A stretch of DNA of 64,000 bases from Escherichia coli (GTDB lineage Bacteria > Pseudomonadota > Gammaproteobacteria > Enterobacterales > Enterobacteriaceae), in assembly GCF_030384885.1 (NCBI RefSeq), contig NZ_CP128613.1. One strand, given 5' to 3'. The position numbers and the translations under genes are program-made. Positions 14,147-64,000 of the stretch are shown here, one piece after another (the first letter of the stretch is position 1; every line of letters starts with the position of its first letter). Below the pieces are notes generated by a model. It ran no database searches, was not told where the DNA came from, and saw only the letters and a list, made by a program, of their open reading frames with translations.

Positions 14147-14317
14147 GATGATTTTTCCTGTTGGGTGACACCAGAAGTTGGCGATTTTATCACAATACTT
14201 TTGTTGTCGTGCCTTCACCTGAGAATCACTTTGCGAGGCGCTTTCCAGGATTGAAAACTGGCCGTCGATTTAACGGAACGGCTATGACAGGATGCGAGCA
14301 CCACAAAGGAGGTGAAG

Positions 14318-14986
14318 GTGAAAAACAATGCACAGCTGTTGATGCCGCGCGAAAAAATGCTGAAGTTTGGTATTAGCGCCTTAACGGATGTCGAGCTGCT
14401 GGCGCTATTTCTGCGTACCGGAACGCGCGGTAAAGATGTATTAACCCTGGCAAAAGAGATGCTGGAGAATTTCGGCTCTCTTTATGGCTTGTTAACCTCT
14501 GAATATGAACAGTTTAGTGGCGTTCATGGAATTGGCGTGGCGAAATTTGCCCAGTGAAAGGGGATTGCTGAACTGGCGCGGCGTTACTACAACGTGCGGA
14601 TGCGTGAAGAAAGCCCTTTACTCAGCCCGGAGATGACGAGGGAATTTTTACAAAGCCAGCTCACGGGCGAGGAGCGGGAGATCTTTATGGTGATCTTTCT
14701 CGACTCCCAACACAGGGTTATAACGCATAGCCGTCTTTTTTCCGGCACGCTAAACCATGTTGAAGTCCATCCTCGGGAAATTATCCGCGAAGCGATAAAA
14801 ATAAACGCCTCGGCGCTGATCCTTGCACATAATCACCCTTCGGGTTGTGCTGAACCCAGTAAAGCGGATAAACTCATCACCGAACGGATAATAAAGAGTT
14901 GTCAGTTCATGGATTTACGCGTGCTCGACCATATCGTGATTGGGCGTGGAGAGTATGTTTCTTTTGCCGAACGCGGCTGGATTTAA
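14318..14986 (+). pseudogene. yicR: yicR/radC (UPF0758, JAB-domain protein) interrupted by an in-frame TGA
   Basis: ORFs 14312..14557 and 14594..14986 are in the same frame and together give a complete YicR-like protein ([40 protein letters not shown] ... HNHPSG ... ERGWI). The only break is TGA at 14555..14557 where Leu is expected ([18 protein letters not shown]). A GTG start at 14318 follows the aaggagg RBS. Confidence 0.8.
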
Positions 14987-15181
14987 CCCGCTATGCGCGA
15001 TCCTTCGGGATCTTTGTCTGTTCGGGACTTGAGCACATCGCTGAGTCAGCGTATACTACGCCACCTTTGAGAATCTCGGGTTTGGCATTTGGGCCTGGCA
15101 ATCGAGAGTTCACATAGAACTGCGATGACCGGGCTGTAAAGCCTGACGAGGCGCCAATACCCCATACGAAGCTCGAGCTAA

Positions 15182-60395: not shown

Positions 60396-60917
60396 TTATT
60401 CATCGATGCATTTTATAGAATCATCAATGGCTACAATAGTACTATTAACTCTCCAATTTATATTTTTATTATCATTGCAAATATTAACTGAATCTATATC
60501 AATGATTTTTCTATTTTTATCTTTTATTTTATTTACAGTTTCAATGCAATCAGCGACAAGTTGGTGTGGATTTAGATTCTTCAGATATGGTCTTATGATC
60601 TTTCCCTTGCTTAATAAATAGCATGTATAGGATTCGGAAAGTCCAGCATCTATTTTGTACATCATTATTCTAGATAAGGATGTGAGAAATGCCTTGTTAT
60701 CATTAGCAGCCATATATGCCAGTCCGAGTTCAGCCTCTGCGGCTTTACATGAAAAATAGCTAAATGAACACGCTTTTCGTCCCTCTTGGGTACTGGCTGA
60801 TATTAGTGCCCATAATATTGCCTTGTCTGCCAAATCCAACTCTCTCTGAAATTGGTTTACAGTAACTGCATTCGCAGAAATAGAGAAAAAAAGCACAATT
60901 GTTAATAACCTTGCCAT
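60396..60917 (-). CDS. Putative secreted immunity protein for the orphan Rhs toxin tip
   Basis: 173-aa, very AT-rich ORF starting 4 nt after the stop of the orphan rhs fragment; N-terminal signal peptide (MARLLTIVLFFSISANA); immunity role inferred from position. Confidence 0.6.
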   Translation of the reverse strand: MARLLTIVLFFSISANAVTVNQFQRELDLADKAILWALISASTQEGRKACSFSYFSCKAAEAELGLAYMAANDNKAFLTSLSRIMMYKIDAGLSESYTCYLLSKGKIIRPYLKNLNPHQLVADCIETVNKIKDKNRKIIDIDSVNICNDNKNINWRVNSTIVAIDDSIKCIDE

Positions 60918-60921
60918 ATTT

Positions 60922-62334
60922 CTAGTCCGTCACTGTTAATGTGCTATCTGGCTCTGAAAATATTAGCCCATTTAATTTTTGCATGTCATTAGATGAACCA
61001 GTTATACAACCCTCGGAACAGAATCGAGGTCCTAAAGATGGACCAAAAGCGTTTAAACAACTATGTGTTAAAAATCCATCACGATTATACGTTTCTGTAT
61101 TTGCTGACGGTACTAAACGTATACCATTAGGTTTTCTATTAGTTGCTCCAGGACCATTAACATTCCAGGTCCATACCCCTTGAGGTATTGGGCCTCTATT
61201 TTGTAAGTGTGTACAACCAGGATTATTTTTACATTGCATATTATTACCATTATTACCAGAGGCGACTGAAATAGTAAGCACACCATAAGAATTATCATCA
61301 CTTGGCGTATCTGAAACGCATGAAAGCATACCTAAAGTTATGCTGTATAAACAGGTCGCTAATCCCAACGGGTCAATATCAGTTATCGGATTCAACGGAT
61401 ACTGATAAAAATTCCATCCCCCCTTCAGCCCAATCGGATCCTGAGTGATATACCGCCCCTGCAGCGGGTCATAATAGCGGTGGCGGTTGTAATACAGGCC
61501 GGACTCCTCATCATACTGCTGACCCGGCAGGCGGATGAGCTGCTGCAGCTGGTGCGGGTTCTCTTCATTCAGCAGGTTGCCCCATTCATCATATTCTGCG
61601 TACCACGCTGTTGCCCCTTCCGTGCTGACAAGCGCCAGCGGCAGGCCGCGATGGTCGCAGTGGTACAGGTGGATTTTTCGCGCCGGCGTGTACACCGGGT
61701 CCATCTGGTTTTGCATCTGCTCCACCGTCAGGCCGCACGATGCCAGCCAGCGGCGGCTTTCCTCACTCACCCGGTCAGCCAGGATTTCACTTTCCAGCCG
61801 GTCGAGCATCTGCACCAGCACCGGCGGGAACACCACATGGCCTCCGTCTTCGCCGCCGGACTGCTGAAGGGCATCCGCCAGGCTGCGGCGCTGCGTTTTC
61901 GCCAGCTCACCGGTGGCGGTTTCGACCCTGATGAGTGGCGTGAAACTTCCCGGCAGGTATACCGTCTGGATGCGGGTTCTGTCGTTCTGTATCGTGGTCA
62001 GCCGGTCGCCATCCCAGCCGTACCAGGTCACTTCCGGTTTCCTTGACAGCGACATCCAGCCCGTCAGGTCCCGTTCACGCCGCCACACCCGTTTTGCCAC
62101 CCTGCGGCCCAGCGGGTCGTAAAGATAGCGACTTTCGACCAGCGGCTCTGCATATTGTGTCCGCGTGTAGTGCACCAGCCGGTGCCGGCTGTCGTAATGG
62201 TACCGGTGAGTCCGCTCATCATCCGTGCGGATAACCCCTTCCGGGATGAGGTCGGTTTTCTCCGTCAGCCTGCCGTGACGGTCATACCGGTAAAGATAGT
62301 GCGCGTCACGGGCGATACGGTTATCCGGCCACAT
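60922..62334 (-). CDS. Orphan Rhs C-terminal fragment: core repeats plus alternative toxin tip
   Basis: N-terminal ~320 aa identical to the upstream rhs 3' region (YD-repeat core ending ...[27 protein letters not shown]); followed by a ~145-aa divergent, low-GC C-terminal domain containing THSC...SEGCITG. Confidence 0.85.
61385..62133. repeat. Direct repeat copy A (rhs core 3' segment), identical to 63252..64000
   Basis: The identical antisense ORFs 61480..62046 and 63347..63913 (188 aa) and direct base comparison show an offset of 1867 bp; identity runs to the window edge. Confidence 0.9.
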
Positions 62335-62447
62335 GCTGAGGGTGCTGTCCGGGTGCAGCTCCGGGTCGGGCAGGCGGTTACCTGCCGGGTCTGTTGCATA
62401 CGGGATATCAATGCCCAGGTTACATATAATAATAAGAGCAATTAACT

Positions 62448-62774
62448 TTATTTATTTATAATGCGCTTACTTAATACAAACCATTGAATATACCCTCCTG
62501 ACAGAAAATAAAGCCATATTATTATCGCCATAATATACTTGCTATCAATTCTTACGCCAATAATGTCTGAAATACTCCCTATAAATATTAGAGCAATAAA
62601 GAATACTATGCCTGTTGGAAAACATATTACCATCATTCCATAAGACATGAGACTAATTAACTCGCTCACATCACGAGTGGAGTCTAATAGTGAAAGTCTA
62701 TGCATGGAAAAGAATAGCATTAAAAGTGATAACGCCAGCCATATAGCTCTGAATGAAAAAATAATATATTTCAT
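62448..62774 (-). CDS. Putative membrane immunity protein for the primary Rhs toxin tip
   Basis: 108-aa AT-rich ORF with about three hydrophobic helices; its ATG overlaps the rhs TAA stop by 1 nt (TAATG), suggesting translational coupling. Confidence 0.65.
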
Positions 62775-64000
62775 TACATCACTCCGGTGAATACAAATCT
62801 AATAAAACGTCCAATGTTATTTCCGGAGCACTTCATCTTACATGTTTCTAAAGAATCATTAGACCAGTCTTGGCAGTTTTTAAATAGCCCTAAATTTATA
62901 GGTGTGAATATATCAGGCAATACAGAATAACGCGGCCTTACCTCTTTAAATTTCCCTTTTAAACAGTTCTCCACACAACTATTATCGGTTTCAACGAGGT
63001 CACAACGGCCAGCAGCTTCTTTTGTATCATTACTTGCTTTACCTGGCCCCCATAGACCATCTCCTTTTGATTCTCCCCGTTGGTCTTGGCCACCACAAGT
63101 ATAGTCCCCTTTACCATCTGGGACACAAAGATATTGATGATAGAACGGATTCCCCCATATATCTGGACCGCTTCTTTCACCAGTTCCGCCCATTGAATGC
63201 AGTGGCTTAATGCATTTTAGTGTTTCTAATCCTAATGGATCTATATTTGAGATCGGATTCAACGGATACTGATAAAAATTCCATCCCCCCTTCAGCCCAA
63301 TCGGATCCTGAGTGATATACCGCCCCTGCAGCGGGTCATAATAGCGGTGGCGGTTGTAATACAGGCCGGACTCCTCATCATACTGCTGACCCGGCAGGCG
63401 GATGAGCTGCTGCAGCTGGTGCGGGTTCTCTTCATTCAGCAGGTTGCCCCATTCATCATATTCTGCGTACCACGCTGTTGCCCCTTCCGTGCTGACAAGC
63501 GCCAGCGGCAGGCCGCGATGGTCGCAGTGGTACAGGTGGATTTTTCGCGCCGGCGTGTACACCGGGTCCATCTGGTTTTGCATCTGCTCCACCGTCAGGC
63601 CGCACGATGCCAGCCAGCGGCGGCTTTCCTCACTCACCCGGTCAGCCAGGATTTCACTTTCCAGCCGGTCGAGCATCTGCACCAGCACCGGCGGGAACAC
63701 CACATGGCCTCCGTCTTCGCCGCCGGACTGCTGAAGGGCATCCGCCAGGCTGCGGCGCTGCGTTTTCGCCAGCTCACCGGTGGCGGTTTCGACCCTGATG
63801 AGTGGCGTGAAACTTCCCGGCAGGTATACCGTCTGGATGCGGGTTCTGTCGTTCTGTATCGTGGTCAGCCGGTCGCCATCCCAGCCGTACCAGGTCACTT
63901 CCGGTTTCCTTGACAGCGACATCCAGCCCGTCAGGTCCCGTTCACGCCGCCACACCCGTTTTGCCACCCTGCGGCCCAGCGGGTCGTAAAGATAGCGACT
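62774..64000 (-). CDS. Rhs family protein, 3' end (core C-terminus plus toxin tip); 5' end outside window
   Basis: ORF open to the window edge; YD-repeat core ending ...[27 protein letters not shown], then a ~150-aa Cys-rich, low-GC C-terminal domain. Confidence 0.88.
63252..64000. repeat. Direct repeat copy B (rhs core 3' segment)
   Basis: Identical to 61385..62133; truncated by the window edge. Confidence 0.9.

Follow-up and report, generated by a model that had tools for sequence, protein, structure and literature searches.

The window analysed here is a 64,000-nucleotide stretch of contig NZ_CP128613.1 (Escherichia coli, RefSeq assembly GCF_030384885.1). It carries radC, also named yicR, between coaBC and rpmB-rpmG-mutM (Table 1), collinear with the annotated genomes of strains 2013C-4282 and 6409; the conserved gene order around yicR is also stated in PMC4725251. 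The gene is interrupted by an in-frame TGA codon and appears as two ORFs, 14312..14557 and 14594..14986. An initial interpretation made from the letters of the window (hereafter the sequence-only reading) had proposed that these ORFs share one frame and jointly encode a full-length RadC/YicR protein, with the TGA as sole lesion. Translation of positions 14312-14986 confirms this, giving a single '*' after the residues ...GIGVAKFAQ. The numbering of the stop as codon 80 holds when codons are counted from GTG 14318, which is the start according to the RefSeq annotation of the 222-aa orthologue and has the better Shine-Dalgarno match. The leucine expected at this position is encoded by TTA in every relative inspected.

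Base-by-base alignment to radC of other E. coli strains, the check that had been proposed for this locus, resolves the lesion to one T>G transversion at 14556 (TTA to TGA) without any indel. The four aligned relatives all have the TTA leucine codon where the window has TGA. No other base of radC distinguishes the window from the 11 closest complete E. coli genomes, and the rest of the gene matches exactly the intact radC of 2013C-4282 and 6409 (product WP_001297375.1). A pair of compensating indels, suggested by a local CAGTGAAAGGGG run, was considered and rejected: the alignment is that of a plain substitution.

Table 1. Features of radC and its surroundings in the window, and other disrupted radC alleles found in public sequences. 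Positions are those of the window except where a contig handle is given
Feature	Position	Strand	Details
Shine-Dalgarno AAGGAGG for GTG 14318	14306..14312	+	Sequence read-off; duplex with 16S rRNA 3' end -12.9 kcal/mol
radC/yicR, nonsense pseudogene	14318..14986	+	GTG start 14318, stop 14984-14986; 222 codons in intact relatives
79 codons still translated	14318..14554	+	Entire UPF0758_N domain (Pfam PF20582, residues 9-77) inside
Premature TGA, codon 80	14555..14557	+	T>G at 14556; TTA Leu in relatives
Downstream in-frame ORF	14594..14986	+	130 aa from GTG 14594 or 128 aa from ATG 14600; whole JAB domain
Internal ATG with good Shine-Dalgarno match	14687..14986	+	99-aa product; -8.5 kcal/mol, 1st background percentile, 9-nt spacing
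JAMM-type motif EVHPRE (149-154), HNHPSG (171-176), SKAD (181-184)	14762..14869	+	Intact in DNA, downstream of stop
Terminator-like hairpin directly after radC stop	14999..15012	+	Consensus match only
Sigma-70 promoter-like site TTGAGC-17-TATACT, upstream of rpmB (15203)	15029..15057	+	Consensus match only
Shigella sonnei 3233-85 and 53G radC	L018/L019:1673-2450		777-bp IS1 insertion after nt 167
SRR5683226 radC			TTA>TAA at codon 111
ERZ28576947 radC			TTA>TGA at codon 111
E. coli H420 (ADJZ01000044.1) radC	L017:9718-10393		+1 G frameshift
LR134247.1 radC			1-nt deletion, possibly a sequencing artefact

Two domains are recognised on the repaired 222-aa translation: UPF0758_N (PF20582) at residues 9-77 (E = 8e-21) and JAB (PF04002) at residues 103-221 (E = 2e-44). 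PDB 2QLC, the only solved homologue, aligns to residues 109-219, and the residues of the JAMM-type motif (E ... HxH ... S ... D) match up with those of 2QLC. The premature stop lies between these domains, in the linker, and therefore leaves the amino-terminal domain whole while the JAB domain is lost whole. The repaired protein scores 321.9 bits with TIGR00608 (cut-off 133.85) and 289.5 bits with NF000642 (cut-off 180), passing both family models, whereas the actual 79-aa product reaches 89.3 and 77.3 bits, respectively, below both cut-offs. The locus is a radC gene, yet its 79-aa product is no longer a member of the RadC family. Both the gene and its coaBC-radC-rpmB-rpmG-mutM context are those of E. 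coli YicR (UPF0758, formerly 'RadC'; TIGR00608/NF000642; PF20582 and PF04002), from which the allele of the window differs by TGA instead of TTA at codon 80, by a product of 79 instead of 222 amino acids and by the loss of the JAB domain. YicR, a widely conserved protein for which no function is established, has been described as a putative JAMM-type enzyme or, possibly, a nucleic-acid-processing one (PMC4725251, PMC5512222, PMC11981726).

The yicR-rpmB-rpmG-mutM operon reportedly gives rise to at least three mRNAs (PMC4725251). In the window, the terminator-like hairpin and the promoter-like site both precede rpmB. Because of this arrangement and of the multiple transcripts, a polar effect of the nonsense mutation on the essential ribosomal protein genes would be unlikely. 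The emphasis that the sequence-only reading had put on essential flanking genes is correct for coaBC and rpmB, but it is probably immaterial, as rpmB is preceded by a promoter-like site of its own, downstream of the terminator-like hairpin.

The nearest complete relative of the window is 2013C-4282 (NZ_CP027579.1, 3667789-3731788), which is almost identical to it. This completely sequenced, stx1-positive strain belongs to Escherichia cryptic clade I (PMC10100065). Identity to typical E. coli is only ~97% in this core region, which, together with the clade I assignment of the nearest genome, suggests that the window probably originates from a strain of Escherichia cryptic clade I. Over the first ~48 kb, leaving out a repetitive adhesin gene, window and 2013C-4282 differ by seven substitutions and by no indel. 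Four of the substitutions are synonymous, one is intergenic, one is the nonsense change in radC and one is a missense change in kbl. The latter, at codon 313 (window 32289), gives Met in the window and Ile in 2013C-4282 and is the sole missense difference outside the adhesin gene. Stop-creating changes make up 3.7% of the possible substitutions in radC, and with 6-7 SNPs between the window and its nearest relative, the chance that one or more of them is a nonsense change is ~0.2 under neutrality.

Two other regions of the window differ more extensively from 2013C-4282. The adhesin gene (46828-51855, minus strand) codes for a YadA-like trimeric autotransporter of 1,675 aa and includes 4.2 copies of a 213-bp (71-aa) tandem repeat at 49475-50361. 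Its orthologue in 2013C-4282 has 1,959 aa, being longer by 852 bp, the equivalent of four repeat units, and most SNPs between the window and the reference cluster in the repeat array. The difference in repeat number could be real copy-number variation or a collapse in short-read assembly. The Rhs locus (60396-64000, minus strand) departs from 2013C-4282 beyond 62406. It has a 470-aa RHS-core carboxyl-terminal fragment (60922-62334) with an Imm57-type immunity gene (60396-60917), preceded by a second RHS-core carboxyl terminus (62774-63967) and a 108-aa ORF (62448-62774) for which no family match was found. This organisation looks like an extra toxin-tip/immunity cassette that makes the downstream one an orphan. 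Between yicG and yicC, some other E. coli backbones compared here have a gene with a Bro-N domain, and one of them also has a gene for a reverse transcriptase (RVT_1) between pyrE and slmA; these genes, at L009:3975-4799, L010:3976-4800, L012:2489-3313 and L012:6245-7204, are absent from the window.

Megablast with the gene detects radC in 5,424 of 5,426 complete E. coli genomes, with no match of 100% identity among the 5,424 and 11 at 99.9%. A mutant 55-mer centred on the T>G change, which seeds the 28-nt megablast word only where the target carries G, has no match among the complete E. coli genomes. The wild-type 55-mer with T, used as positive control, seeded in 4,255 complete genomes, the test being uninformative for the ~1,170 genomes in which nearby polymorphisms block the 28-nt seed. 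A mutant 37-mer gave no match in the JGI metagenome contigs scanned. The truncated protein is nonetheless already known from public deposits: the exact 79-aa product is found at NCBI (EFI0626050.1, EKK0702267.1 and HCN5425551.1) and in Logan assemblies. Contigs from runs ERR2987533, SRR34489103 and SRR34938331, one of which may have supplied the reads from which the window itself was assembled, all carry the TGA and are 100% identical to the window across 20.2, 12.6 and 10.2 kb, respectively. Literature searches for these run accessions returned no match. Lookup by the exact length or sequence of the 79-aa protein also returns contigs that end at the codon, which is why seven of the ten contigs retrieved are not carriers but backbones of ~97% identity that stop at codon 79/80 without a stop codon. 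E. coli H420, the sole record of the 130-aa ORF product, was likewise rejected as a carrier; its radC has a +1 G frameshift and no TGA.

The status of the TGA depends on whether the base is correctly read, whether some RadC activity survives the stop and whether the stop is meant to be decoded. A sequencing or assembly error, with T as the true base and an intact radC, was one of the alternatives of the sequence-only reading, and it could seem attractive for a single-base substitution present in none of the 5,424 complete genomes that have the gene. However, at least three separate runs assemble to G, and every carrier contig matches the window without a mismatch across 10-20 kb. The identical 55-nt context is found with T in more than 2,000 genomes, when an error driven by this context would be expected to appear across lineages; since, in addition, all carriers have the haplotype of the window, a systematic error is very unlikely. 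The remainder of the window shows neither indels nor other disruptive differences relative to its nearest relative. The sequence-only reading held that the same stop in close relatives, with a shorter protein, would count against its interpretation. The 79-aa NCBI protein is such a case, and it refutes the error only, leaving the pseudogene standing. An error is effectively excluded, with a very slight residual chance: the T>G mutation is real and inherited within one clone, and TGA is the derived state.

A real stop could still be leaky, or the gene could be split, leaving a hypomorph that keeps some meaningful RadC activity: readthrough by Trp-tRNA would yield YicR(L80W), whereas reinitiation at GTG 14594 or ATG 14600 would yield a stand-alone JAB protein. 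The location of the stop between the two Pfam domains is favourable to this possibility, and so are the proximity of these first restart codons, just 37-43 nt past the stop, and the 130-aa ORF, which has the entire JAB domain and by itself passes the cut-offs of TIGR00608 and NF000642. Since K-12 has a weak RF2 variant, readthrough values obtained in it are too high for natural isolates. Among the stop codons of E. coli, UGA leaks most: reporter assays in K-12 gave readthrough of ~2% at 37 C and of 4% at 25 C (PMC10570021). Traces of a full-length L80W protein are possible by this route, but they would have Trp where relatives have Leu, and no unusual RNA fold that might promote readthrough is found 3' of the stop (positions 14550-14625, -20.3 kcal/mol versus a shuffle mean of -19.55, z = -0.25). 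Reinitiation is also poorly served: the Shine-Dalgarno pairing before GTG 14594 and ATG 14600 (-2.5 and -1.5 kcal/mol, respectively) does not stand out from the background mean of -2.2, suggesting that the downstream ORF is probably not translated. The sole internal start with a Shine-Dalgarno match, ATG 14687, corresponds to residue 124 and begins inside the JAB structural domain; its 99-aa 'RadC' is the product picked by gene callers on three carrier contigs. The 130-aa ORF would share a single-domain JAB architecture with YeeS, YkfG and YfjY, the stand-alone RadC-like proteins of E. coli cryptic prophages. Those proteins have their own translation signals, whereas the ORF of the window lacks them and is the remnant of a two-domain gene. 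Survival of meaningful RadC activity is judged unlikely. Programmed recoding or engineering, in which the UGA would be read as selenocysteine or by a dedicated suppressor, or would have been introduced deliberately, has nothing in its favour except that the stop is UGA. No SECIS-type hairpin lies 3' of the codon, and the best Rfam match (E = 0.64) is an unrelated snoRNA model. Shuffled sequence folds as well as the region downstream of the stop, and no tRNA gene was found in the window. The UGA is not conserved in orthologues either; it is derived, and relatives all have Leu. The genetic background is that of a natural, wild-type lineage other than K-12, which has a clinical clade I isolate as a close relative. 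The probability of an engineered or suppressed stop, the other alternative of the sequence-only reading, is negligible.

The yicR gene is dispensable in E. coli. Cells survive its deletion, which left unchanged the pRpmG-induced resistance to mitomycin C that was tested (PMC4725251). PMC11981726, which cites Attaiech 2008, reports a normal DNA-damage sensitivity of radC mutants. Overproduction of YicR, in contrast, promotes endogenous DNA damage (bioRxiv 10.1101/354589). Disrupted radC genes are also found outside the clone studied here. In S. sonnei 53G and 3233-85 the gene was, as in the window, inactivated in a natural lineage, leaving a 67-aa amino-terminal fragment and a carboxyl-terminal JAB ORF, but the cause is a 777-bp IS1 insertion rather than a point mutation and the lineage is a different one. 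A 128-aa carboxyl-terminal RadC fragment, called 'S. sonnei RadC' in some sources, is present on 822 contigs. The alleles of SRR5683226 and ERZ28576947 belong to the same class of event as that of the window, since a TTA leucine codon has become a stop by one second-position change and an amino-terminal fragment is accompanied by a 99-aa JAB ORF call. They differ from it by the position of the stop (codon 111 instead of 80) and by their backbones, with 10-11 other differences from radC of 2013C-4282, and are independent events. These TAA and TGA alleles, from two unrelated E. coli samples (L022:1501-2169 and L023:1501-2169), give an identical 110-aa product, and one protein record covers both because of this identity. 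The frameshift of H420 extends a GGGG run to GGGGG, five bases downstream of the mutation site of the window; as the draft assembly is an older one, the extra G may come from misreading of the homopolymer.

The loss or splitting of YicR could also have been adaptive in the clade I clone, instead of neutral. YicR is a source of DNA damage when overproduced, and with the stop exactly between the two domains the clone might make a free amino-terminal HhH-like domain together with traces of JAB protein, with an altered activity. We give this idea a slim chance. If it were true, the recurrent independent radC lesions (IS1 and codon 111) would be a sign that an intact radC is selected against in certain niches.

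We strongly favour an ordinary pseudogene, null or strongly hypomorphic, produced in radC/yicR by a real opal nonsense mutation specific to one clone. A nonsense pseudogene was the first alternative of the sequence-only reading, and one derived substitution reproduced in three runs supports it. By a spontaneous T>G change at 14556, Leu80 (TTA) became an opal stop in the ancestor of a clone that probably belongs to Escherichia cryptic clade I. Ribosomes starting at the native GTG would terminate after 79 residues and yield a fragment that has only the UPF0758_N (helix-hairpin-helix-like) domain. The presumed catalytic carboxyl-terminal JAB/JAMM-type domain would not be made, save for traces arising by UGA readthrough or inefficient reinitiation, and the allele would be null or strongly hypomorphic. 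From the missing recoding and restart signals we infer the loss of the full-length protein, a loss that was presumably neutral. With yicR dispensable and rpmB-rpmG-mutM served by a promoter-like site of their own, the lesion would be tolerated and would persist as an ordinary pseudogene.

For annotation, the locus is a radC/yicR pseudogene, neither two genes nor an assembly error; the significance of the finding beyond annotation is very little. The TGA allele is usable as a marker of the clone. Its carriers are natural yicR loss-of-function mutants in a wild, probably clade I background, which could be useful in the hunt for a yicR phenotype, and together with the IS1 and codon-111 alleles they strengthen the case that natural populations can do without yicR.
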